Assembly: GCA_034667685.1 (NCBI GenBank)
Contig: JAXDQU010000124.1
Span: 1-64,000 of the forward strand
Direction: 5' to 3'
From: Thermoplasmata archaeon
GTDB lineage: Archaea; Thermoplasmatota; SW-10-69-26; JACQPN01; JAJPHT01
DNA: 64,000 nucleotides
Part shown: positions 37,207 to 49,437 of the stretch, piece after piece
Numbering within the stretch: the first letter of the stretch is position 1
Layout of the letters: each line of letters starts with the position of its first letter
Translations under genes and position numbers: made by a program
The notes under the pieces: model-generated
Told to the model about the DNA's origin: nothing
Database searches by the model: none
What the model saw: the letters and a program-made list of their open reading frames with translations, nothing else

Positions 37207-38415
37207 ATGATCGGCGAGCAGATCCGGCAGGACTTCCCGCTGCTATCAAAATTGGAGCCGCCGATCTACCTCGACAGCGCGTGCATGACGCTGAAGCCGC
37301 GCAGCGTGATCGACGCGGTCGTCCGCTACTACGAGGAGACGCCGTTCTGCGCGGGGCGCGCGGTCTACGAGGGCTCGCTCGCCGTCGAGGAAGCGATGGA
37401 AGCGGCCCGGTGCGACCTCGCCGCGCTCCTGGGCGGCCGCCGCGAGGCGACCGTCTTCACCAAGAACGCGACCGAGGCGATCAACCTCGTCGCGCACGCC
37501 TTCCCCTGGCGCCCGGGCGACGTCGTGCTCACCACGGACCGCGAGCACAACAGCAACCTCGTGCCCTGGCAGATGCTATCAAGCCGCGGCGTCAGGCACG
37601 AGGTCGTCCCCTCGCGCGAGGACGGCACGCTCGACCTCGACGCGTGGCGCGGCCGGCTCGCGCGCGGCGACGTCGCGCTGGTGGCGGCGGTGCACGTCTC
37701 GAACCTCGACGGCTACGAGGCGCCCGTCCGCGAGCTGACCGCGATCGCGCACGAGGCCGGCGCGAAGGTCCTGCTGGATGGCGCGCAGGCCGCGGGCCAC
37801 CAGCCGGTCGACCTCGGCCGGGTCGGCGCGGACTTCTATGCCGTCTCGCTCCACAAGATGCTCGGACCCACGGGTGTCGGCGCCCTGCTCGCGCGCCCCG
37901 AGGCGCTCGCCGCGCTGGGCCCGTTCATGACCGGCGGCGACACCGTCGCGCGCACCACGTACGAAGGGGCGGACCTGCTCGAAGCGCCCGCCAAGTTCGA
38001 GGCCGGGCTCCAGAACTACGCGGGGCTCGCCGGCAGCGTCGCCGCGCTCGCGTACCTCCGCGGCCTCGGGCCCGAGCGCATCCACGCGCACGCCTGCGCG
38101 CTGATGCGCCGCGCCGCGGAGGGGCTCGCGGGCGCGCCCGGCCTCGCGCTCGTGGGCGCGCCGCTGGAGACGCGCGCGGGCATCGTCCCCTTCACGCTCG
38201 ACGAGCAGGATCCGCATACCCTCGCCATCCTCCTGGAGGACAAGCACCGCGTCCTCGTCCGCAGCGGCGACCACTGCCTCCACAGCTGGTTCAATGCGCG
38301 CGGCGTGCCCGGCGCCGTCCGGGCCAGCGTGGGCCCCTACACGACCGCGGCCGAGATCGACGCCTTCGTCGAGGCGACCCGGGGCCTGCTCCGCCAGCTC
38401 GCTCACAAGCGGTGA
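37207..38415 (+). CDS. Cysteine desulfurase (class V PLP, SufS/CsdA-like)
   Basis: YLDSAC, EHNSNLVPW, DGAQ, HKMLGPTG, RSGDHC. Confidence 0.9.
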   Translation: MIGEQIRQDFPLLSKLEPPIYLDSACMTLKPRSVIDAVVRYYEETPFCAGRAVYEGSLAVEEAMEAARCDLAALLGGRREATVFTKNATEAINLVAHAFPWRPGDVVLTTDREHNSNLVPWQMLSSRGVRHEVVPSREDGTLDLDAWRGRLARGDVALVAAVHVSNLDGYEAPVRELTAIAHEAGAKVLLDGAQAAGHQPVDLGRVGADFYAVSLHKMLGPTGVGALLARPEALAALGPFMTGGDTVARTTYEGADLLEAPAKFEAGLQNYAGLAGSVAALAYLRGLGPERIHAHACALMRRAAEGLAGAPGLALVGAPLETRAGIVPFTLDEQDPHTLAILLEDKHRVLVRSGDHCLHSWFNARGVPGAVRASVGPYTTAAEIDAFVEATRGLLRQLAHKR

Positions 38416-38465
38416 TCCAGGGGCGTACCTCAACCGGGTTGCCACCCCATGCCGCCGCGGCGGCC

Positions 38466-38777
38466 ATGGATCCGGTCGGTTTCGGGACGTTCGGCGAGCG
38501 GCGCGGCGAGTTCGACATCCTGGTCGCCATCCTCCGCCTCGCGGCCCAGGGGCACGGCCGCACGCGCATCATGTACGGCGCGAACATCAGCCACGCCATG
38601 CTCCGGCGCTACCTCGACGGCCTGGAGAGCAAGGGCTTCGTCGCGCGCGACGGGGAGTCCTACGCGCTCACCGCCAAGGGCGAGCAGCTCCGCCGCGACA
38701 TGGAGCGCGTGCTGACCCACTTCGAGCGGGCGCCGCGGGACGCGCCCTTCTCGCCGGACGCCAAGGCTGCCCCATAG
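38466..38777 (+). CDS. Archaeal winged-helix protein
   Basis: RR.EFDILVAIL...TRIMYGANIS...YLDGL...YALTAKG. Confidence 0.85.
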   Translation: MDPVGFGTFGERRGEFDILVAILRLAAQGHGRTRIMYGANISHAMLRRYLDGLESKGFVARDGESYALTAKGEQLRRDMERVLTHFERAPRDAPFSPDAKAAP

Positions 38778-38836
38778 CTACGCTACGGCGTGGGCGGAAC
38801 GTCCCCGGCTTCAGGACGCCCCCTGGCATGGCCGGC

Positions 38837-39127
38837 TCAGAGCATCCGCCAGGGCGTCTTGACGAACGGCCCTTGGCCGTCGCCCGGGCACTGGTTGCTC
38901 ACGAAGAAGTAGCACTGGCGGCAGTCCATCAGGTTGCAGCGCGCGCCCAGCACGCCGGCCTCGCGCAGCCGGCCCACGGCGTAGCGCACCGTGCGGCCGG
39001 GCATGCCCGTCGCCGCCACGAGGTCCTTGTGTGTCAGCGGCCCGGCGCGGGTGAGCGTCTCGAAGACGTGGCGCGCGCTGGGCGGGAGCCCATCGGGCAT
39101 GGCGACCAGGGGCGCGACGTTTGCCAC
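38837..39127 (-). CDS. Archaeal MarR-like HTH regulator with four-Cys C-terminus
   Basis: LPPSARHVF.TL...GPLT...RTVRYAV.RL; CNLMDCRQC-x7-C; start GTG 39127 or ATG 39100. Confidence 0.8.
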   Translation of the reverse strand: MANVAPLVAMPDGLPPSARHVFETLTRAGPLTHKDLVAATGMPGRTVRYAVGRLREAGVLGARCNLMDCRQCYFFVSNQCPGDGQGPFVKTPWRML

Positions 39128-39181
39128 GCTCGTTCGATTCCAGGCCTTGGATATAATGATGATGGGAACCCTGGGGCCACC

Positions 39182-39721
39182 GTGCTGAGGATCTGGACCA
39201 TCGGCCACAGCAACCGGACGCCCGAGGCGTTCCTCGACCTGCTCGTCCAGAATGGCATCCAGCGCGTCGTCGACGTGCGGACCCTTCCCCGCTCGCGGCA
39301 CAATGCATGGACCAGCGTGGACGCGCTGCCGGGCATCCTGGCGGCGCGCGGCATCTCCCACGCGCACCTTCCCACGCTGGGCGGCCTGCGCAAGCCGAGG
39401 CCCGAGAGCCCCAACGGCGCGTGGCGCAACGAGAGCTTCCGCGGCTACGCGGACCACATGCGCACGCCCGAGTTCGAGGAAGGGCTCGCCACGCTCCTGC
39501 GCGGGGCGGCGCGCGAGCCCACGGCGATCATGTGCGCGGAGGCCGTGCCCTGGCGCTGCCACCGCTCGCTGATCGCGGACGCCCTCCTGGCGCGCGGCGT
39601 CGAGGTGCTTGATATCATCGACGGGCCGGCCAAGCCGCATCGGATGACGCCCTTCGCGCGCGTCGTCGAGGGGCGCGTCACGTACCCGCCCGCGGGCGGC
39701 GAGCAGACGCGGCTCCTCTAG
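39182..39721 (+). CDS. DUF488 protein
   Basis: IWTIGHSNR, VDVR, LGGLR, SFRGYADHM, MCAEAVPWRCHRSLIADAL. Confidence 0.92.
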   Translation: MLRIWTIGHSNRTPEAFLDLLVQNGIQRVVDVRTLPRSRHNAWTSVDALPGILAARGISHAHLPTLGGLRKPRPESPNGAWRNESFRGYADHMRTPEFEEGLATLLRGAAREPTAIMCAEAVPWRCHRSLIADALLARGVEVLDIIDGPAKPHRMTPFARVVEGRVTYPPAGGEQTRLL

Positions 39722-41253
39722 TCGCGCGGCAGCGGCATGGGCGGCGCCAGGTCGAGCGGCGCCACGTCGCCCTTGCCCGTGAGCGACGGTCCGGAGACCT
39801 GGACGGCGACGCCCACCTGGCGCTCGCGGCTCTGGCCGCCCACGACGTCCGCGACGTTGCCCGCGCAGCCGTTGCGCGGCACGCAGCCGTCGGTGAACGC
39901 GACGTACCAGCGCCCATCCTTGTCGTGGACCATGTCGATGAAGTCCAGGAGGTTGCGGCAGCCGTGCGGCCCGCCGCCTCCGCCTTCGAGCCAGATGCAG
40001 CCCACCTGCACGGGGTCCTCGTTGGGCGTGACCTGCGTCGTGACGAACGTGGGGCTCGCGGACTCCGCGTCGTCCACGGTGGTCACGAACAGGTGCCACG
40101 CGCTGCCCAGCGTCGCGTTGCTCGGCGAGGCGCCGGGGTCTTGCGGGTCGCGCGTGCCCACGTACGCCATGGCGAGGCGGCCGTCGGCGCCGCTGGTGAT
40201 CGCGGTGAACTCGTCGAGCGTCTGGCCGGGCGGCGCGACGCGGAAGCTCTGGCAGGTCTGGAACTTGTCCTTGCTGCGGAGCAGATGCGTCATCTCGTCG
40301 TGGTCGCGGTAGAGCAGATACGCCGTGCCGTCGGGGGTGACGGTGATATCAGCGTCGATCTCGAGCTGGCCGAGCTTGGGGTCGCATTGGCGGACGCTCC
40401 ACGTGACGCCGCCGTCCTCCGAGAGCACGACGGTGAGGGGCCGCTCGCAGCGCGTGCCGCCCAGGTTGCCCAGCACGAGCGCGACGGTGCCGTCGGGGAA
40501 CGCGGCCGGGTGGCCGTTGATGTTGCTGCAGAGATGGTCGTTGACGTAGACCTCGCGCTCCAGCGGGAACGACAGCCCGCCATCGAAGCTCGTCATGCAC
40601 GAGGTGCCCATGCCGTCGGCCAGCCCGCCCAGGCCCGTGTCGAGCATCTTGTTGACGCACATGTAGACGAGGCTCGGGTACTGGCCGGGCGCGCGCGGGA
40701 TCGTCGCGGGCGGCGGCGCCGTCATGACCTTCTGGTGGTCGAGGCCGGGCGTGGCGCAGTCGAGAGGACGCTCCGTCCACGTGTTGCCATCGTCGTCGCT
40801 CCAGCTCATCCACGTGCACAGGAGCGCAGGGTGCATCTGGTTGGCGAAGACGCGGTCCGTGCCGGCGTCCACCCACATCATGGGGTCTGACGTGCCGAAC
40901 TGGTCGTCGGTCAGGGGCGCGCCGGGCGTCACGAGATCCTCGACCACCTTCCACGTCTTGCCGTGGTCGGTGCTGCGCCGCACCTGGTCGAGCGTCGTGA
41001 CGAAGAGGCTGCCCTTCGACGTCACGCCGACGTTGGGCTCGGCCCCCGTGCCGGGCACGAGCTGCTCGATCCCCTTCACGACGTCGGCGGGGACCGGGCG
41101 CGCGGTGCCGTTGCCATCGTACGCCACGGGCGCCGGCCACGTGTAGGCGGTCGCGGGCTGCGCGACGGAGAGCGGCTGGAGCGGGAGCGGCGCGCCGCCC
41201 AGGCAGCCGGAGAGCAGCAGCGCGAGCGCGAGGACGATCATCCTGTTACTCAA
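39718..41253 (-). CDS. Asp-box beta-propeller lipoprotein, sialidase-like
   Basis: Lipobox LSGC; STDHGKTW, SDDDGNTW, SFDGGLSF, SEDGGVTW. Confidence 0.85.
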   Translation of the reverse strand: MSNRMIVLALALLLSGCLGGAPLPLQPLSVAQPATAYTWPAPVAYDGNGTARPVPADVVKGIEQLVPGTGAEPNVGVTSKGSLFVTTLDQVRRSTDHGKTWKVVEDLVTPGAPLTDDQFGTSDPMMWVDAGTDRVFANQMHPALLCTWMSWSDDDGNTWTERPLDCATPGLDHQKVMTAPPPATIPRAPGQYPSLVYMCVNKMLDTGLGGLADGMGTSCMTSFDGGLSFPLEREVYVNDHLCSNINGHPAAFPDGTVALVLGNLGGTRCERPLTVVLSEDGGVTWSVRQCDPKLGQLEIDADITVTPDGTAYLLYRDHDEMTHLLRSKDKFQTCQSFRVAPPGQTLDEFTAITSGADGRLAMAYVGTRDPQDPGASPSNATLGSAWHLFVTTVDDAESASPTFVTTQVTPNEDPVQVGCIWLEGGGGGPHGCRNLLDFIDMVHDKDGRWYVAFTDGCVPRNGCAGNVADVVGGQSRERQVGVAVQVSGPSLTGKGDVAPLDLAPPMPLPRD

Positions 41254-44200
41254 GGTCGGGCACCCCCTTGTCGAGGCGGCGGAAGCGCAGGAGCATCCCG
41301 CCCACGGCGACGACGCCGGCGAACGCGCCCACGCCGGAGAGGATGCTCGGCACGAGGACCGGCGCGCCCTCGTCCTGCACGGAGAAAGGCGTGCGGGCCG
41401 CGGCGGCTTCGAGCTTCTCCACGGCCTGCTCGCCCGGCGTCGCGCCCGGCACGTGCGCCAGGAGGTCGGCCTGCTGAAGGTGCGGGAGGCTCCACGTCGA
41501 GGCGCCCGTGCGCGAGGTGACGAGCATCAGCTGGGGCATCACGGTGTCCAGCTCGTAGAGGAGCGACTCCGATCCGTTGCCGGTGAGGAAGATCCCCTCC
41601 TGGAGCTGGCTTGCGGCCAGGTGGACGTCCACCAGGACGTCCTGCCGCCCGTCGGGCTGCGCGAGCCCCTGGAGCGAGACGTAGGGCAGCGCCTCGGCGT
41701 AGCCGGTGGTGGAGACCGCGGAGACGCGGCGCGACCAGATCGCGCCCCCGCCGGCGCCGTCGTAGAGCGTGAGCCAAAGGTCGTTGACGTCTCCCGAAAG
41801 CACGCCCATCTCACGCCGGCCGTCGCCATTGGCGTCGGGCGCCGCGATGGGGGAGCAGAACGTCCCCACGCACGACACGGTGGACAGCGGCCGCGCCGTG
41901 CGTCCGTCCAGGAACGAGAGATGGTGGAGGACGGTCTGGTCGCCCAGCAGCTCCGGCCGGTCCACGGGCACCTCTCCCACGCCGTCGCCGTTGACGTCGA
42001 CGATGCCCGCGCGGCGCATGGCGTCGAGGAAGTAGGCGACGTCCGCGGGCGCCTCGAGGCTGGTGGCCGTCCAGAGCGTCTTGCCCGTGCGGCCCGAGAG
42101 GACGAAGACGTGCGCCGGCTGGACGACCGCGCGGTCTTCGCTGGTGGCGTACCACTCGGTCGCGACGAGGTCGGCCGCCCCGTCGCCGTCCGAGTCGCCA
42201 AGGAGCGCGGCGTCGATCGCGCGCGGCGCCTCGCGCGACCACAGAAGGTGGCCGTCGCGGCCGCTGCGCGCCGAGAGGACGTCGCGCGGCTCCGAGCCGG
42301 TCAGGCGCTCGCGCAGGATGACGTCCGAGGCGCCGTCGCCGTCGAGGTCGGCGGTCGCCAGGATGCGCACCTCGTGCGCGGGCACGTTGAGCTCGGCGGC
42401 CAAGCGCAGCCGCGGGTTGGGATAGGGATGCGCGCCCGTGGTGGCGGGCACGTCGCGCCGGATCGTCTGGTCCCACAGCTTCTTGCCCGTGGCGCCGCCG
42501 AACGCGACGAGGTGGACGTCGAAGTCGCGCGGACCCGTGTTCGCGTTGGGCGTGGGCGACCAGACGTTCTCGCGGTAGAGGACGTCGGGCACGCCGTCGC
42601 CATCGAGGTCGGGGCAGCAGGGAGCCGGGTCCCAGGCCCGGTCCTTGACGCTGACGGGAGGCGCGTCCTCGTCGCGCTCGGCGTAGGCGGCGTCGAGGAT
42701 CCACGCCTCGCGGCTCGCGGCGGGATCGGCGGTGAAGGTGTCCGTGCGCCACGCGACGTGGCCGGTCTGCGGATCGAGGCGCGCGACCCACTCCACGCTG
42801 TCGTAGCGGTCGAGCAGGATCGGCCCGTTGTTGAAGCCGGGCGCGGACACGTACGACTTCACCTCGCCCACGCTCCAGCCGACGCCTTCGACGAAGAGCG
42901 CGCCGGACGCCACGAAGGTCTGGATGAAGAAGGTGTCCGCCTGCGAGGCCATGACGCCGTCCTCGGCCTCGCGTCCCTGGAACGCCCAGCGCCAGAGCGT
43001 CGCGCCGTCGCGCGCGTCGATCATGGCGATCTCGTGGAGCGAGACGGCGGCCCCGAAGAGGAGGCTCGGGCGCTCGACGCGCGTGCGCTCCACGACGATG
43101 CCGGTCCCGTTGGCGAGGCGCATGGTGCCCACGACGCGCGCGTTGGAGCAGCCCATCTGCGTCGAGTTCTCGTTGAGGTCCACGGCCCACGCGACGGTCC
43201 CGCGCGCGCCGTCGAGGCCGAAGAGCCTGTGCTCGGGCGGGCAGCGCCAGATGGCCTCGTGGTCGGCGTCCTCGGGCAGGCGGAAGGCGCCCTCGCAGTC
43301 GTACCGGACGACGCAATAGACGTCCGCCACCACGTCGGCGCGCCCGTCTCCCGTGACGTCGCCGATGGGGTAGGTGAACGCGAGCGTGTCGTTGTCGTCG
43401 AAGACGCGCTGCGTCGTGGCGTTGGGCTCGGGCGTGGCCGCTTCCGTGGGCGGGGGCAGGAGCGTGGGCGGGGGCGAGGGCAACGGCGCGCGGCCGCCCA
43501 GGGACAGGCTCAGCGCGGGCGAGACGGGGAGCGCCGTGACGAGGACGACGAGCACCACGCCCGCGGCGAGGAGCTTGAGCGGAAGACGGCTCAGCGCGAG
43601 CAGCGTCGCGAGCCCCAGCGCCAGCCCAAGCGCGACGCCCACGACGACGCCCCATGCGACCCGCGGCGCCAGCGGCGCGGGCGGGGCGTCCACGCTGGCC
43701 AACGAGAGCGGCTGCGTGCTCGCGGGCGAGCTGAGGTTGGGCGAGCGCCACACGAGGCTCCCGTCGTTGGCGATCCTCGCGCGGGGCGTGATGACCTCGT
43801 GGCGGCGCTCGAAGCTGAAGTCCTGGAGGTCGGCCCACGCGAGCGTCGCGCCGCCCGGAAGGCCCGCGCAGCCGGCGCCCAAGGCCTCGAGCTCGATGCC
43901 GGTGGTCGCGGCGTGGGGCGCGCTGCTGCTGTGCAGCGGCACGCGCCAGAGCGTCTGGCCGCTGCTCGCGTCCAGGCGCGTGACGTCGACGCGCCGCGCG
44001 TGGCCCGAGACGACGGTGAGCTTCGTGCCCGCGTCGCCGCACGCGACGACGCGCCCGTCCGGACCCCAGGCGGAGAGCGTCTGGAGCACGTGGCCGTCGA
44101 CGCCGCTGCGCACCTCGTAGACGTGGCTCGACGTGGCCAGGAGCGCCTGGTCGCGCCCCGTCTCGAAGGCGGGCTGGGCGGGCGTGACGAGGTCTCGCAC

Positions 44201-45841
44201 GCCATCGCCGTCGAGGTCGAAGGGGGCGAGCGCTTCGCCATACTGCGCCAGCGCCAATTGATAGCTCAGGTAGGAATTCTCCGCGAAGCTGCGCTCCCAC
44301 GTCCAGCGAGAGGCGCCGGTGGCCGCGTCGAGCCCGACCAGGCGGAGGCTCTTGGCAGGGAAGCGCCCGCCCGGCGGGGGGAGGGTGGGCACGTCGACCA
44401 GGCCCACGCCCAGGAGCCCCTTGCCCAGCGGCGCCGCGCGGCCCCAGCCTTGCAGGCGCGCGTCCCACATGGGCGTGCCGTTGGCGCCGCGCAGCGGGAC
44501 GAAGTGCGTCCGGTACTGGCCGTTCGGCGTCGCCTGGAGGCCAAGCTCCTGGCCGACCCACGAGGCCATGACATCAGGGTGGCCGTCCCCGTCGAGGTCC
44601 GCGACGGCGTACGCCTGCTCCCACTGGAGCTGCTCGACGCCCTCTTCCAGCGGCGGGCTGGCGCGCGGGGCCAGCGCATCGACGAGCGTGCGGTTCCAGC
44701 CCACCTCGCCAGACCTGCCCTCCAATGCCAGGACGGCCATCCCGCGGCCCGCCTGCGCGAGGCTCGCGCCGGTGGGATCGACGATGCCGGTGGCGCGCGG
44801 GCTCTCCAGCGTCGTCTGGTCGAGCACGATCTCGGGCCAGGCGTCGCCGTCGAGGTCGGTGGCGCTCGCGAGCCACGTCAGGTTCGTGACCTTGCCGTCG
44901 GCCGCGAGGTCGCGCGTCCACATCGTGGTGCCGTTGGCCGCGTCGAGCGCGAGGACGTGGTCGGTCGCCGCGGCGGCGTCGTACGAGAAGGGCGTCTGGA
45001 AGGGCAGGTCGAGCGAGTTGCCGATCTGGGCGTTGGTGAAGCCGATGGGGTCCTCGGCCTTTTGCTCCAGGACGTCGGTGGTCTGGAGCACGACCTCGGC
45101 GCCATGCGGCGTGCGGGCCACCATGAGGCCCGTCGGGAAACCCTGGATGGAACGGACGAAGACGCTCGCGAAGCCATAGAGGGGCGCTGCGTCGTCGGCG
45201 CGCGTGTCGCGCCCATCCAGAGCGCGCGTCCAGAGCGGGCGGCCGTCCTTGCCCGAGAGCGCCTTGACGATGGCCGCGTACGTGACGACCTGGACGTTGC
45301 TCTGCGTGGGCGGCGCGTCCAGCCTCGTGCCGGGCTGGTAGCCGAACGCCACGACGTCGCATGCGCCGTCCCCGTTGAGGTCGGGCGCCGCGACGACGTT
45401 GCGGGGCGCGTCGGGGACCGGCTGGCCGAGACGCTGCCACGAGTCGCCATCGTCGCGCAGCGTGACGGCGAAGAGGTTGTCGGCGGCCCAGAGCTGCGAG
45501 CCGTTGGCGCCGCTCCACGCGACGACCTTGGAGGGGGCGTCCTCCAGCCGCGGGGGCGCGCGCAGGTCGAGGTCGTTCGAGATCATGTCGGGGACGCCGT
45601 CTCCGTCGAGGTCGCACGTCGCGTGCACGTCGCGGTACGTCGTGCGCGGCGCGTTCCCGTCCACGGCCGCGGCCGCGGCGGCCTCCGTCGCGCCCGGCGG
45701 GAGCGCGCCCATCCGCTCCATCTGCGCGAGGAAGGCCGGACCCATGCCTCCCACCTGCGGCGCGACCTGGGGCGCGCTGGCCCGGGCCGGCGCGAGGGGC
45801 GCCAGGAGCAGCACGGCCAGGAGCGCGGGGAGCAGCCTCAT
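41246..45841 (-). CDS. Large membrane-anchored FG-GAP/VCBS plus PQQ-like repeat protein (1531 aa)
   Basis: Signal peptide; many DLDGDGxPD loops and (D/S)GxxGxxLW motifs; central TM pair; C-terminal TM. Confidence 0.88.
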   Translation of the reverse strand: MRLLPALLAVLLLAPLAPARASAPQVAPQVGGMGPAFLAQMERMGALPPGATEAAAAAAVDGNAPRTTYRDVHATCDLDGDGVPDMISNDLDLRAPPRLEDAPSKVVAWSGANGSQLWAADNLFAVTLRDDGDSWQRLGQPVPDAPRNVVAAPDLNGDGACDVVAFGYQPGTRLDAPPTQSNVQVVTYAAIVKALSGKDGRPLWTRALDGRDTRADDAAPLYGFASVFVRSIQGFPTGLMVARTPHGAEVVLQTTDVLEQKAEDPIGFTNAQIGNSLDLPFQTPFSYDAAAATDHVLALDAANGTTMWTRDLAADGKVTNLTWLASATDLDGDAWPEIVLDQTTLESPRATGIVDPTGASLAQAGRGMAVLALEGRSGEVGWNRTLVDALAPRASPPLEEGVEQLQWEQAYAVADLDGDGHPDVMASWVGQELGLQATPNGQYRTHFVPLRGANGTPMWDARLQGWGRAAPLGKGLLGVGLVDVPTLPPPGGRFPAKSLRLVGLDAATGASRWTWERSFAENSYLSYQLALAQYGEALAPFDLDGDGVRDLVTPAQPAFETGRDQALLATSSHVYEVRSGVDGHVLQTLSAWGPDGRVVACGDAGTKLTVVSGHARRVDVTRLDASSGQTLWRVPLHSSSAPHAATTGIELEALGAGCAGLPGGATLAWADLQDFSFERRHEVITPRARIANDGSLVWRSPNLSSPASTQPLSLASVDAPPAPLAPRVAWGVVVGVALGLALGLATLLALSRLPLKLLAAGVVLVVLVTALPVSPALSLSLGGRAPLPSPPPTLLPPPTEAATPEPNATTQRVFDDNDTLAFTYPIGDVTGDGRADVVADVYCVVRYDCEGAFRLPEDADHEAIWRCPPEHRLFGLDGARGTVAWAVDLNENSTQMGCSNARVVGTMRLANGTGIVVERTRVERPSLLFGAAVSLHEIAMIDARDGATLWRWAFQGREAEDGVMASQADTFFIQTFVASGALFVEGVGWSVGEVKSYVSAPGFNNGPILLDRYDSVEWVARLDPQTGHVAWRTDTFTADPAASREAWILDAAYAERDEDAPPVSVKDRAWDPAPCCPDLDGDGVPDVLYRENVWSPTPNANTGPRDFDVHLVAFGGATGKKLWDQTIRRDVPATTGAHPYPNPRLRLAAELNVPAHEVRILATADLDGDGASDVILRERLTGSEPRDVLSARSGRDGHLLWSREAPRAIDAALLGDSDGDGAADLVATEWYATSEDRAVVQPAHVFVLSGRTGKTLWTATSLEAPADVAYFLDAMRRAGIVDVNGDGVGEVPVDRPELLGDQTVLHHLSFLDGRTARPLSTVSCVGTFCSPIAAPDANGDGRREMGVLSGDVNDLWLTLYDGAGGGAIWSRRVSAVSTTGYAEALPYVSLQGLAQPDGRQDVLVDVHLAASQLQEGIFLTGNGSESLLYELDTVMPQLMLVTSRTGASTWSLPHLQQADLLAHVPGATPGEQAVEKLEAAAARTPFSVQDEGAPVLVPSILSGVGAFAGVVAVGGMLLRFRRLDKGVPDLE

Positions 45842-45850
45842 GATATCATC

Positions 45851-47815
45851 TCAGCGGCGGACGTGGAGGCGGCCCGAGAGCGCGACCTTGGCCTGGGGCG
45901 TCGCGTCGAGCGCGGCGTCGAGGACCTCGGCGAGGTCGTGGCACGCGACGATCTCCAGGGTGGCCAGGCCGGGCTCGTCGGCGAGGAGCGAGGCCAGCGC
46001 GGCGGCGGGGACGATGGCGCGCCGGTAGCCGAGCGCGGCGGCGGCCTCCAGGCGCTGGAGCGTCGCGCGCACCGGGCGCAGCGCGCCGCTCACCGCGACC
46101 TCGCCCACCAGCACGACGTCCTGCCGGACCGGGAGCGACTCCAGCGCCGAGACCGCGGCGACGGCGGCGGCCATGCCGATCCCCTCCGCCTCGGCGTGCG
46201 GGTGGGCGATGCGGGCGTCGACGTGGATGTCGTGGTCCGCGATCGCGTCGCCCTTGAGGATCTTCAGGACGGCCCCGACGTTCTCGACGCCGTGGCCGTG
46301 CGCGCCCTTGAGGCCGGGGCCCAGCACGATGGCGCCGCCGTGGCGCGAGAGCGCCGGGACGACGGCCGCCTCGACGGGCGCGACGAGGCCGGCGGGCTCG
46401 CCCACCTCGCCGGTGCCCACGATGGCGACGCCGATCGCGCTTCCCACCTCGGCGCCCGCGCGCACCGCGAACCCTTCGCGGGCCAGCGAGCCCTCGACGT
46501 CCTTCTCCATGATCTGCTGCTCCAGCGAGCGCGAGGCGCGCTTGGCGGAGCGCACGTGCTCGACCGTCACGAGGGTCGCGCCCGCGGCGCTCGCGAAGTC
46601 GCCGGCCGTGCGCACGAGGCCGCCCAGCTCGCGCAGGCGCAGCGTGAGCTTGCCGGTGCGGCCGCTGCGGCGCTGGGCCTCGCGGATCACCTCGCCCACG
46701 GCGTCGGCGTCGAAGTGCGGGATGCGCCCGTCGCGCGCGACCTCCTGGGCCACGAACTGCACGAGCTTCGCGCGGTTCGCGTCGGTGTCGTCCATGAGCG
46801 CGTTGACGTGGATCTCGTAGCCGTAGCCGCGGATGCGCGAGCGCAGCGCGGGGTGCATGCCGCCCGCGCCGTTCTGCTCGGGGGGCGCGACGGCGTCGAG
46901 GTTGCCGGCCGCCACGAGGATGAAGTCGCAGGGCACGGGCTCGGTGCGGATCATCGCGCCGCTGCTGCTCTGCGACTGGCCCACGATCGCATACTGGCGG
47001 TCCTGCATCGCGGTGAGGAGCGCCTGCTGCGAGGGCAGGCGGAGCACGTTGATCTCGTCGATGAAGAGCACGCCCTTGTGCGCGCGGTGGATCGCGCCCT
47101 CCTCCACGCGCGCGTGGGGCGGCGTCTCCAGGCCGCCGCTCTGGAAGGGGTCGTGGCGCACGTCGCCCAGGAGCGCGCCCGCGTGCGAGCCCGTGGCGTC
47201 CACGTAGGGCGCCTTCTCGGGCCGCGCCGCGTGCTCGGCGAGGAGCTTCGGGACGAGGAGCTCCTTCTTGGGCGCCTTCTGGCCCATGAAGTAGACGAAC
47301 ATGAGGCCGATCAGGACGCTGAAGAGGAACGAGAGCACGCCCTGGGCCAGCGCGAGCCACATCACCAGGCCGAAGAGGATCGTGCCCGCCGCGATGCCGT
47401 ACTCGACGGCGCGGTAGAGCAGGACCTTCCTCGTCGCCTTGCGCTCGTACTTCTCCAGGATGCGGCGCCCCAGGCCCCCTTCCACCTGCGCGACCTTCGG
47501 CATGTTGGGGTTCTTCGCGTTGTGGTGGACGAGGACGTCCTTCTGCGCCTCGGCGGGAAGCAGCTCCGCCATCGCCTTCGCGATCATCGACTTGCCCGTG
47601 CCGGGGTCGCCGATGAGCAGGATGTTGCGCTTCTGCTCCGCCGCCCTGCGCACGATCTCGACGGCGTGATCCTGTCCAATGACCTGCTCGATGAGGCGGT
47701 CCGGGATGGCCACGTCCGCCGTCGTGGCGAATCCCTGGCGGCGGGCCCACTGGCGCGGGTCGGCTTCGAGCGGGGCGTTCACGGGGATGCGGCGGGTCTG
47801 GGTCTCTTCGGTCAT
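45851..47815 (-). CDS. LonB-like AAA+ protein with degenerate protease domain
   Basis: GDPGTGKS, two-TM insert, GALLGDVRHDPFQSGG, LFIDE, MHPALRSRIRGYG; catalytic Ser and Lys motifs altered. Confidence 0.9.
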   Translation of the reverse strand: MTEETQTRRIPVNAPLEADPRQWARRQGFATTADVAIPDRLIEQVIGQDHAVEIVRRAAEQKRNILLIGDPGTGKSMIAKAMAELLPAEAQKDVLVHHNAKNPNMPKVAQVEGGLGRRILEKYERKATRKVLLYRAVEYGIAAGTILFGLVMWLALAQGVLSFLFSVLIGLMFVYFMGQKAPKKELLVPKLLAEHAARPEKAPYVDATGSHAGALLGDVRHDPFQSGGLETPPHARVEEGAIHRAHKGVLFIDEINVLRLPSQQALLTAMQDRQYAIVGQSQSSSGAMIRTEPVPCDFILVAAGNLDAVAPPEQNGAGGMHPALRSRIRGYGYEIHVNALMDDTDANRAKLVQFVAQEVARDGRIPHFDADAVGEVIREAQRRSGRTGKLTLRLRELGGLVRTAGDFASAAGATLVTVEHVRSAKRASRSLEQQIMEKDVEGSLAREGFAVRAGAEVGSAIGVAIVGTGEVGEPAGLVAPVEAAVVPALSRHGGAIVLGPGLKGAHGHGVENVGAVLKILKGDAIADHDIHVDARIAHPHAEAEGIGMAAAVAAVSALESLPVRQDVVLVGEVAVSGALRPVRATLQRLEAAAALGYRRAIVPAAALASLLADEPGLATLEIVACHDLAEVLDAALDATPQAKVALSGRLHVRR

Positions 47816-49437
47816 TCGTCGCGGACCTCCACGGTCTGCTGGCGCCGGGCCATGGCGACGCGGGCCATGGCGGTGCCGGCGAGGACGCCGGCGGGGATGC
47901 CGACGAGGACGGGGATGCCGCCGGGGGCGGCGGCGGGAACGGGGGGAGCCTGCGCGGCCAGGGGGACCACGGGCGGCGCGAACCCGTGCTCGCGGACCTC
48001 GGCGAAGCGGACGAAGCCGTAGTCGCCGTAGGCCAGCAGCTCGCGCGGGGCGCCGCCGGCGGGATCGCGCCGGACGACGAGGCTGTCGTGCAGGTCGTCG
48101 TAGACGTCCTCGCCCAGGCCCGTGGCGGTGGGGCTCACGTCCACGCGGCGCACCTGGCCCAGAGCGAGGTCGAGGCTCGCCCGGACGCCCTCGGGACCCA
48201 GCGCGACGAGCGTCTTGGCGATGCCGGGCTGGGCGTCGGTCGCGCGGCGCGTCTCGAAGACGAGGTGCAGGCTCCCCGAGCCAGGCGCGTAGGCCGCGGC
48301 CGTCGCGCGCGCCTCCAGGAGCGCGCCTTGGGAGCCCAGCCCGGGCGGCTGGACGTCGGGACCCACGTCGCGGGGCGCGCTCCAGGCGGAGCCGTTGCGC
48401 GCGCGGAACGACACGACGAGGCTCGGGTGACCGTCCTGCACGCCGGCGGCCCACGCCGCGTAACGGCCGGGTCCGTCCAGGGGCGCGAGGCCCACCTGGC
48501 CCAGGTCCGGCAGAGGGAGCGCGCCCAGGTCCGAGGCCCGCGACGTGCGCGGGTCGAGCGACACGAGCCGCGATCCGCAGGCGAAGACGAGGCTCGCCCC
48601 CTCGGCGAAGGGCCGCGAGAGCGAGGCGCACCCCTGCGGCGTGAGGTTCGCGTCGAGCGGCGTCCACGCGCCGGACGTCCCGTTCGCCCACGCGCCGGCG
48701 AGGGTGACGCGCCGCGGGGCGTCCTCCTGGCGCCAGAGCGCGACGAGGGCGTCCGCGTCGGGGACGTAGGTCAGATGCAGGCTGTCCGCGCGCGAATCGG
48801 CGGGGAGCGGCAGCACCGTGAGGCCGTTGAAGTAGTCCATCCCGGCCGCGGGCTTCCCCTCGCGCCAGAGGGCGACCGTGTAACGGTAGGGCGTCGAGGC
48901 CGTGGCGCCCGCGTCGCGCGACGCGTAGAGGGCCGCCAGCGCGACGCGGCCCTGGCCGTCGAGCGCCATCGCGTTGTCCTCGCCGTACGCCTCGCGCGCC
49001 TGGCCCGCCCGCACCGGGACGCCGGGCAGCGTGGAGGCGGGCAGGATGGCCGTGGGCGGATCGTACGGGTAGTCATGCCACGTCGAGCCGCCGTCGCGGG
49101 TCACGAAGGTCGTGTGCGGCTGGTGGACCGAGGCGTCGCGGCTCCGGGGCGACGGGGGCTGGCCGCTCGGGAGCGGATGCAGCCCCGCGCCGCCGTGCAT
49201 GGCGCTGAACGCGAGGACCGACGGATCGCGCGCGTCGGCCACGAGGTCAGGCTGCCCGAACAGGTCTTCCTGGTCGAGCACGTAGAGGGGGCAGGTCGGC
49301 GGCTGCGCGGGCGAGGCCGCGACGACCGGTGGGCAGGCCAGCTCGAAGCCGGCGCCGCCCGGGGCCGCGTGGACGACCGGGACCGCGAGCAGGACCAGGA
49401 GAAGGGGGGCGACCCAGCGGACGGACTCGGACGCCAC
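47812..49437 (-). CDS. Secreted Asp-box-containing protein with C-terminal TM anchor
   Basis: GAGGTG before the GTG; signal peptide; FVTRDGGSTW; ATGA overlap with the Lon-like gene. Confidence 0.8.
   Translation of the reverse strand: MASESVRWVAPLLLVLLAVPVVHAAPGGAGFELACPPVVAASPAQPPTCPLYVLDQEDLFGQPDLVADARDPSVLAFSAMHGGAGLHPLPSGQPPSPRSRDASVHQPHTTFVTRDGGSTWHDYPYDPPTAILPASTLPGVPVRAGQAREAYGEDNAMALDGQGRVALAALYASRDAGATASTPYRYTVALWREGKPAAGMDYFNGLTVLPLPADSRADSLHLTYVPDADALVALWRQEDAPRRVTLAGAWANGTSGAWTPLDANLTPQGCASLSRPFAEGASLVFACGSRLVSLDPRTSRASDLGALPLPDLGQVGLAPLDGPGRYAAWAAGVQDGHPSLVVSFRARNGSAWSAPRDVGPDVQPPGLGSQGALLEARATAAAYAPGSGSLHLVFETRRATDAQPGIAKTLVALGPEGVRASLDLALGQVRRVDVSPTATGLGEDVYDDLHDSLVVRRDPAGGAPRELLAYGDYGFVRFAEVREHGFAPPVVPLAAQAPPVPAAAPGGIPVLVGIPAGVLAGTAMARVAMARRQQTVEVRDE

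Follow-up and report, generated by a model that had tools for sequence, protein, structure and literature searches.

The window analysed here, a 64,000-nucleotide stretch of contig C124 of the Thermoplasmata archaeon genome G000 (3.48 Mb, 99% complete, 73% G+C), carries on its minus strand four open reading frames (ORFs; 49437..39718) with a G+C content at third codon positions (GC3) of 0.95-0.96. These encode, in order, a surface protein that we call g1, a LonB-family ATPase in which the catalytic residues of the protease domain are replaced (P0001, here termed pseudo-LonB), and two further exported proteins, g3 and g4 (Table 1). The g1 stop and the pseudo-LonB start share an ATGA overlap at 47812-47815, the pseudo-LonB stop lies 9 nt from the g3 ATG (45842-45850), and the ends of g3 and g4 share 8 nt (41246-41253), provided that g4 starts at TTG. 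An earlier note, made from the letters of the window, had described this four-gene coupling, and its junctions and coordinates proved correct. The start of g1 is ambiguous, lying at either GTG 49437 or TTG 49479. Near-identical DNA (share 0.97) is present in a second soil sample of another study; at least three soil-metagenome DNA data sets contain such DNA, and no RNA data set was among the matches listed.

Table 1. Coordinates of the operon genes and the segments within them, together with exosortase/archaeosortase-family genes elsewhere in the same genome
Feature	Position	Strand	Basis
g1: predicted surface beta-propeller protein, tail-anchored, 541 aa from GTG 49437	47812..49437	-	invariant partner of pseudo-LonB
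Pseudo-LonB (P0001): LonB-family AAA+ ATPase, 654 aa, membrane-anchored, catalytically dead S16 domain	45851..47815	-	TIGR00764, 3k1j, motif table, clade
Walker A GDPGTGKS, residues 69-76, intact	47588..47611	-	identical in 27/27 pseudo-LonBs
Membrane-anchoring insert in AAA+ module, ~residues 131-183, two hydrophobic helices	47267..47425	-	aligns with 4zpx insert
Dead nucleophile site HAEAEGIG (residues 540-547), canonical GVEGDSAS; Gly545 at Ser	46175..46198	-	alignment
Dead general-base site PVRATLQRLEAA (residues 581-592), canonical P[IV]GGxTPKIEAA; Arg588 at Lys	46040..46075	-	alignment
g3: FG-GAP/PQQ-type protein, 1531 aa, two ectodomains	41246..45841	-	Pfam, hydropathy; clade-A loci only
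Central transmembrane hairpin of g3, ~residues 724-783	43493..43672	-	hydropathy; split orthologues
g4: BNR/Asp-box lipoprotein, 511 aa	39718..41253	-	BNR_2; lipobox-like LLSGC; subclade A only
Exosortase/archaeosortase-family gene, G000	C71:19222-19962		PF09721 114.7 bits
Exosortase/archaeosortase-family gene, G000	C122:54212-54772		PF09721 51.4 bits
Exosortase/archaeosortase-family gene, G000	C106:77649-78359		PF09721 43.5 bits

Pseudo-LonB scores 645.7 bits on TIGR00764 'ATP-dependent protease LonB' (cut-off 516.6), and aligns over its full length with T. onnurineus LonB (3k1j, E 1e-161; 4zpx, E 8e-136) and with the protease domain of A. fulgidus LonB (1z0w, E 1.3e-22). It retains Walker A GDPGTGKS, Walker B LFIDEIN, the pore loop HDPFQSGG with its Phe, ALRSRIRG and LRLRELGG, a set that includes the arginine finger and sensor 2. 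According to passages of PMC2605481 and PMC9569914, the catalytic Ser of LonB lies in [E/D]GDSA[S/T] and the catalytic Lys 43 positions later, and passages of the latter also give this Ser-Lys spacing of 43 residues as invariant in Lon proteases and a membrane-anchoring insert with transmembrane (TM) helices inside the AAA+ module as a LonB trait. In P0001 the columns of the dyad are occupied by Gly545 and Arg588, at the same offset of 43. P0001 thus belongs to the LonB family without being a LonB protease. A canonical LonB is encoded on another contig of the same genome (G000:C70), scoring 911.2 bits on TIGR00764 and carrying GVEGDSAS and PIGGATPKIEAA, so the housekeeping LonB of G000 is intact. 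The earlier note had claimed a LonB paralogue that had lost both Ser and Lys while keeping its ATPase motifs and membrane insert, and had asked for a separate intact lonB; alignment with the characterised enzymes confirmed the replaced dyad, and both copies are present. Asp529, His531 and Ser556 do not vary within the dead domain, but canonical LonB conserves the same DIHV and SALE positions, so these residues give no sign of a substitute active site. An alternative dyad, which the earlier note had named as grounds for abandoning its proposal, was looked for among the conserved residues, and no replacement site was indicated.

Pseudo-LonB copies are found in 6 of 61 relatives and are 58-73% identical to P0001, while canonical LonBs are 45-51% identical to it. 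Across a sample of 401 Thermoplasmatota genomes, 26 contain two or three full-length LonB matches, counts that are lower bounds since three candidates were scored per genome. The dyad columns were read in 8 copies and then at 24 loci, of which 19 were dyad-less and the other five canonical, and this verified a dyad-less LonB in at least 25 genomes of the sample, spread over family codes f1, f3, f30, f33 and f47. Among 27 aligned pseudo-LonBs the Ser column holds Gly in 12, Ala in 10, Pro in four and Leu in one, and the Lys column Met in 14, Arg in eight, Gln in two, Leu in two and Val in one, with all five ATPase motifs retained in every protein and either Phe or Tyr in the pore loop. A quick maximum-likelihood (ML) tree (44 rows, LG+G4) placed the 28 dyad-less rows on one side of a branch of length 0.65 with a Shimodaira-Hasegawa-like approximate likelihood ratio test (SH-aLRT) support of 100, adjoining canonical LonBs from the same phylum; although the trait itself served to define the groups, it makes up 2 of 684 columns. 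Dyad-less LonB is thus a clade with four subtypes, namely A (that of the window, with Lys replaced by Arg), B, M and Q, in five family codes, and is not confined to G000.

Searching a collection of 5.8 billion proteins with the dead domain returned 43 clusters at E 1e-10 or better, none with Ser at the nucleophile column, and the residues at the Ser and Lys columns were G/R in 37, G/M in four, L/M in one and G/K in one. Members named by NCBI come from Thermoplasmatota, and the source names of these clusters are 'ATP-dependent protease LonB' or 'Lon-like ATP-dependent protease' (e.g. P0161, P0164, P0166, P0174, P0177, P0189), names that probably misstate the activity of the dyad-less proteins. 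In subclade Q, a Cys directly follows the former Ser column in 5 of 7 copies (ACG, PCG and GCG patterns), the Lys column being occupied by Gln, Val, Met or Leu; the subclade-Q loci concerned are L072, L074, L075, L076, L077 and L079. Two pseudo-LonB copies, L067 (G078:C64) and G348:C14, have one in-frame TAA each, and at L067 a start codon cannot be placed near the g1 stop; these two may be young pseudogenes or assembly errors.

We compared rates of change in the dyad-less paralogue with those in canonical LonB using the same genome pairs, which span genera. Identities for paralogue and canonical protein were 80-84% and 82-85% in the AAA core, 63-72% and 69-78% in the protease-like domain, and 42-56% and 51-86% in the TM insert. 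Likewise, non-synonymous divergence (dN) between G000 and G006 or G007 was 0.18-0.20 in the AAA region of the paralogue versus 0.11-0.12 in canonical LonB, 0.28-0.29 in the dead versus 0.19-0.21 in the live protease domain, and 0.54-0.55 versus 0.09-0.15 (about 4-6x) in the insert, which is the fastest-evolving and most diverged part of the paralogue. P0001 and the canonical LonB of its own genome are 35% identical over the protease domain and 17% over the insert. Ratios of dN to synonymous divergence (dS) by the NG86 method in four pairs were 0.26-0.37 for the AAA region and 0.35-0.67 for the dead domain, compared with 0.34-0.56 for the canonical live domain; at a GC3 of ~95% dS saturates at 0.4-0.9, which makes these ratios unreliable, and dN and identities were used. 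The dead domain is kept under constraint, with purifying selection acting on it, and the pseudo-LonB gene is not decaying. Of the per-domain check on dN/dS that had been suggested, the dN values support constraint while the ratios carry little, and the decay that had been named as a refutation does not agree with a dead domain 63-72% identical between genera or with a single clade in 25 genomes. Such divergence of the insert would be expected if it adapted to a membrane partner that itself evolves fast.

At all 28 loci (the window, 7 loci and another 20 loci), pseudo-LonB is immediately preceded by a g1-family gene in the same orientation. At the 26 related loci where the spacing was read, with the LonB start taken nearest the g1 stop, a choice that favours small gaps, it was -4 in 13, the value also seen in the window, -1 in three, +1 to +14 in nine and +52 in one. 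Using a profile of 27 g1 proteins, we obtained strong matches (300-684 bits) solely in those 6 of 61 relatives with a pseudo-LonB, each on the contig that carries it, and none in the other 55; weak matches occurred in G012 (one, 67 bits) and G005 (three, 42-61 bits). No linkage was seen between canonical lonB and a g1 gene. In the g1 tree, Lon subclades A (9 rows), Q (6) and B (3) reappear at 99-100, and M does so as 8 rows with L068 as an outlier. The pattern persists even though six genomes (G237, G078, G063, G270, G006 and G007) have two or three modules each, and it follows that Lon and g1 duplicated and diverged as a pair. In place of g3 and g4, subclades B and Q carry extra g1 paralogues, some of which lack an anchor.

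The g1 protein of the window opens with a signal peptide, followed by a predicted propeller (~30-484), a Pro-rich linker, one TM helix (~515-536) and an 11-residue cytoplasmic tail, RRQQTVEVRDE. An AlphaFold2 model built from a 27-row alignment (predicted local distance difference test, pLDDT, 83.2; predicted TM-score, pTM, 0.82) showed an all-beta domain at 30-484, a poorly ordered linker and a helix at 515-536. Foldseek ranked sialidases first, at low TM-scores of 0.35-0.39, and ESM Atlas features pointed to BNR_2 and sialidase-labelled clusters (0.93-0.90). On Pfam BNR_2 itself, however, g1 reaches 16.5 bits, under the gathering score of 31.4, so its propeller nature rests on the fold model and the ESM Atlas look-alikes; of the earlier description as a TM-anchored Asp-box protein, the anchor stands, whereas the Asp-box family match falls below the cut-off. 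Four Cys are nearly invariant, which suggests extracellular disulfides. The ectodomains diverge fast (21-41% identity), and the tails of 11-15 residues have a basic cluster followed by subclade-specific motifs. The g1 of the window has an unusual amino-acid make-up and an end branch of 1.09, compared with 0.44-0.50 in its nearest relatives, and its tail end, VEVRDE, departs from the EAP[ST][LE] of most of subclade A.

Unlike g1, g3 and g4 were found with subclade A only. On Pfam, g3 scores 55.2 bits for FG-GAP (cut-off 22.1) and 47.2 bits for PQQ_2 (cut-off 27.6), and it runs from a signal peptide through ectodomain 1, a TM hairpin, ectodomain 2 and a C-terminal TM helix to a tail ending in GVPDLE. 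The protein is fused as one gene of 1531-1677 aa in G000, G001, G007 and G237:C23, while its halves are two adjacent tail-anchored genes in L069 (670-5771; G237) and L067 (2401-7244; G078). From these separate halves, the central hairpin corresponds to the C-terminal anchor of the first joined to the signal peptide of the second, and g3 itself reads as a fusion of two tail-anchored proteins. The g4 protein matches BNR_2 with 38.0 bits (cut-off 31.4), has a lipobox-like LLSGC and no C-terminal anchor, and has orthologues with 47-63% identity at L029, L030, L066, L069 and L070. Gene order varies, being g1-Lon-g3-g4 in f1 and G078:C118 and g3-g4-g1-Lon in G237. The proposal of a conserved operon with three exported partners consequently holds for g1, at 28 of 28 loci, but not for g3 and g4, which are restricted to subclade A and change in order. 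The G237 module (L069:11129-16558) has three downstream lipoprotein-like genes (501, 493 and 813 aa) not seen at other loci, the first two of which encode similar C-terminal endings.

We compared the module with known systems. Pseudo-LonB shares with archaeal LonB (TIGR00764; 3k1j, 4zpx, 1z0w) its domain order, insert and ATPase motifs, and differs from it in the replaced dyad, its status as a second copy and its obligate linkage to a surface protein. The plastid FtsHi pseudo-proteases, as portrayed in passages of PMC8197885, are likewise membrane AAA+ paralogues that have lost the proteolytic site and kept the ATPase, coexist with active paralogues and serve a non-degrading use. They belong, however, to the M41 metalloprotease family rather than the S16 Ser-Lys family, to another domain of life and to other partners, and the likeness is one of analogy, not homology. 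Pseudo-LonB displays the same combination: its catalytic residues are gone, its ATPase motifs remain, purifying selection acts on it and the genome also encodes an active paralogue. FtsHi acts as an import motor together with Ycf2. An inert Lon-type domain is also kept in the ring ATPases RadA/Sms, ComM/YifB and BrxL, but these act on DNA, have other ATPase modules and possess no membrane insert, and P0001 cannot be assigned to RadA/Sms, YifB or BrxL (42.9, 52.7 and 23.5 bits versus cut-offs of 403.05, 362.4 and 628.25, respectively). In FtsH-HflK/HflC, a membrane AAA+ ring is associated with single-pass proteins bearing large domains across the membrane; here FtsH is an active protease, and HflK/C are SPFH proteins rather than propellers, with no homology to the module. 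The ternary system of MoxR, von Willebrand factor A (vWA) and beta-propeller proteins was rejected as well, as PF20030 (bpMoxR) matched with 23.1 bits against a cut-off of 27 and over the P-loop only, and no vWA family was matched by any of the four proteins of the operon or by the six flanking ORFs that were scanned.

Neither a dyad-less archaeal LonB nor a LonB-propeller pairing was found described in open-access PubMed Central (PMC) and bioRxiv full texts, in agreement with the earlier note, which knew of no such description. Passages of PMC2605481 report 42 putative inactive serine-protease homologues in 91 genomes, among which a Lon-family case is possible. Pseudo-LonB is likely to be a pseudo-protease AAA+ motor with an undescribed obligate partner, g1. 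LonB has counted as the single housekeeping membrane protease of archaea, whereas an entire clade has here apparently abandoned proteolysis while keeping the motor, and its genes are tied one for one to g1. For annotation, this means that a LonB-family match that lacks Ser and Lys in the two columns of the dyad and follows a g1-type gene ought not to be named a protease.

Our interpretation, argued from sequence comparison, is that pseudo-LonB is a functional non-proteolytic LonB ring that acts on the anchor or tail of its cognate g1. Taken as a whole we consider this statement somewhat on the probable side, and we hold the narrower claim of a functional non-protease tied to g1 to be much more likely than the whole. 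Pseudo-LonB would form a membrane-embedded hexameric AAA+ ring with its translocation machinery kept and its ring of protease domains inert, the Ser-Lys dyad having presumably been lost once, long ago. With g1 it would constitute a two-gene module in which g1 is probably made in fixed proportion to the ATPase, and the closeness of the translational coupling, together with cognate pairing, speaks for a stable complex rather than a casual relation of enzyme and substrate. Substrate entry in LonB is reported, for the T. onnurineus structure, to face the membrane, so the simplest mechanism would be for the ring to bind its cognate g1 by the anchor helix and the short tail. In subclade A it would perhaps bind the g3 halves by the same parts, and it would use ATP to grip, pull or reposition these anchors without degradation, in assembly, extraction, remodelling or the transmission of force or signal, while the g4 lipoprotein would join outside. 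Physical contact, the tail or anchor as its point and the outcome of the ATP step are what we infer; for the tail or anchor as grip point in particular, we regard the idea as possible and short of probable. More tentatively, and with doubt outweighing belief, the module might represent a kind of archaeal transmembrane machine not recognised before, in which a cytoplasmic, non-degrading AAA+ ring would carry extracellular propellers by their anchor helices and use ATP to pull or rotate these, so that force or information crosses the membrane as by a winch or an inside-out/outside-in switch, in an ancient system with at least four cognate Thermoplasmatota subtypes. If the proteins do form a complex, it would be an archaeal counterpart of the plastid pseudo-protease motors and would offer a handle on how archaea actuate tail-anchored surface proteins, a little-understood matter.

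Several observations weigh against this interpretation. The conservation of the g1 tail in subclades A, M and Q is 43, 41 and 35%, compared with 38, 41 and 47% for the ectodomain; the tail is no better conserved and is therefore not singled out by selection. The C-terminus of g1, with its Pro-rich motif, helix and basic cluster, resembles archaeosortase sorting signals, and G000 holds three exosortase/archaeosortase-family genes (PF09721) elsewhere (Table 1); if the anchor of g1 is cut off, the tail-grip model fails. No NCBIfam sorting-signal model matched g1 or g3 at E 0.01 or better, although short models are easily missed. The fast evolution of the insert could equally reflect relaxed constraint. 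The module is also patchy, not being found in 3 of 5 same-genus genomes (88, 94 and 88% complete), and is therefore dispensable. The arginine that fills the Lys column of subclade A, and the lysine retained by 1 of 43 database members, leave a small doubt on chemical inertness. A predicted complex of pseudo-LonB with g1 residues 465-541 scored 0.00 in two runs, made without controls, and speaks neither for nor against contact.

The same linkage of g1 to pseudo-LonB would also suit an outside-in sensor, in which g1 is a regulatory or sensory subunit that passes a ligand signal via its anchor helix to the ring, which then remodels cytoplasmic targets, much as HflK/C modulates FtsH. Translational coupling and strict 1:1 pairing are easier to square with the subunits of a stable complex than with an enzyme and a substrate, and the propeller fold is a common ligand-binding module; yet the 28 neighbourhoods share no conserved gene for a cytoplasmic partner, and while the data at hand do not separate a sensor from the ring acting on the g1 anchor, we think the sensor unlikely. 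That pseudo-LonB instead helps a real protease, by forming mixed rings with canonical LonB or handing substrates over to it in a turnover route for the co-encoded surface proteins, has a parallel in the mixed FtsH/FtsHi complexes of plastids described in passages of PMC8197885. Both LonB proteins are membrane-anchored and share a fold, and canonical LonB is also present in 4 of the 6 close relatives with pseudo-LonB (G000, G006, G007 and G010). It was not found, however, in G001 and G005 (86 and 72% complete), the two proteins of G000 have diverged to the 35% and 17% identity given above in the ring-forming protease domain and the insert, canonical lonB shows no linkage to g1, and multi-module genomes pair each pseudo-LonB with its own g1, which suggests self-contained modules and makes a helper role decidedly unlikely.

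Patchiness even within the genus, together with the several paralogous modules of some genomes, the fast-diverging g1 ectodomains and the long g1 branch of the window, would be expected of an accessory conflict or surface-variation module, e.g. one that excludes viruses or masks receptors, whose ATPase would take away or remodel surface proteins as needed. The genomic position of the operon also differs between G000 and G001. An empty-site comparison within the genus carries no weight either way, as the flanks of the operon lie on different contigs in G003 and 60 kb apart in G001. Against such a module, which we judge very unlikely, P0001 belongs to no PADLOC family and shows generic AAA/Lon-domain similarity only (BrxL 32.5 bits, Lon-like domain), no mobile-element genes were found next to the operon among the flanking ORFs scanned, and the clade is old and mostly vertically patterned within its subclades. 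A cryptic peptidase, in which other residues still cut peptide bonds, could draw on the invariant Asp529, His531 and Ser556, on the Cys of subclade Q and on the single database member with Lys, but the shared DIHV and SALE positions mark the first three as structural features of the fold, and as the nucleophile column of subclade A holds neither Ser nor Thr nor Cys, and Lys is missing from its column in all 27 aligned proteins, this seems highly improbable. Finally, a decaying duplicate or assembly artefact might be read from the in-frame TAA of G078:C64 and G348:C14, yet is already contradicted by open frames in 26 of 28 fetched loci (L067 being the named exception), the occurrence in five family codes, the identity of the dead domain between genera and the near-identical DNA of the second soil sample, and is almost certainly wrong.

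The operon flanks are unrelated to its contents, comprising a class-V aminotransferase, a winged helix-turn-helix (wHTH) protein and a DUF488 gene on one side and an ABC-2 transporter on the other. The DUF488 domain (105 bits) is encoded convergently at 38294-39721 (+) of the window, ending 4 nt inside the g4 end, and this ORF is probably overlong at its 5' end, as the domain spans residues 311-431 only. In many other Thermoplasmatota there are open frames of ~500-550 aa whose similarity to LonB, at 46-52% identity, is limited to residues 200-438 (the AAA core), and these, e.g. G052:C4:43195-43968, G022:C11 and G024:C16, seem to be without a protease domain. Dyad-less LonB-like proteins also occur on contigs binned to bacteria. 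P0014 (G/R) comes from a contig labelled Planctomycetota (L089), where 17.8 kb of sequence gave no match to g1, g3 or g4, and P0021 has Asp at the Ser column and lies on a contig labelled Thermincola (L091).

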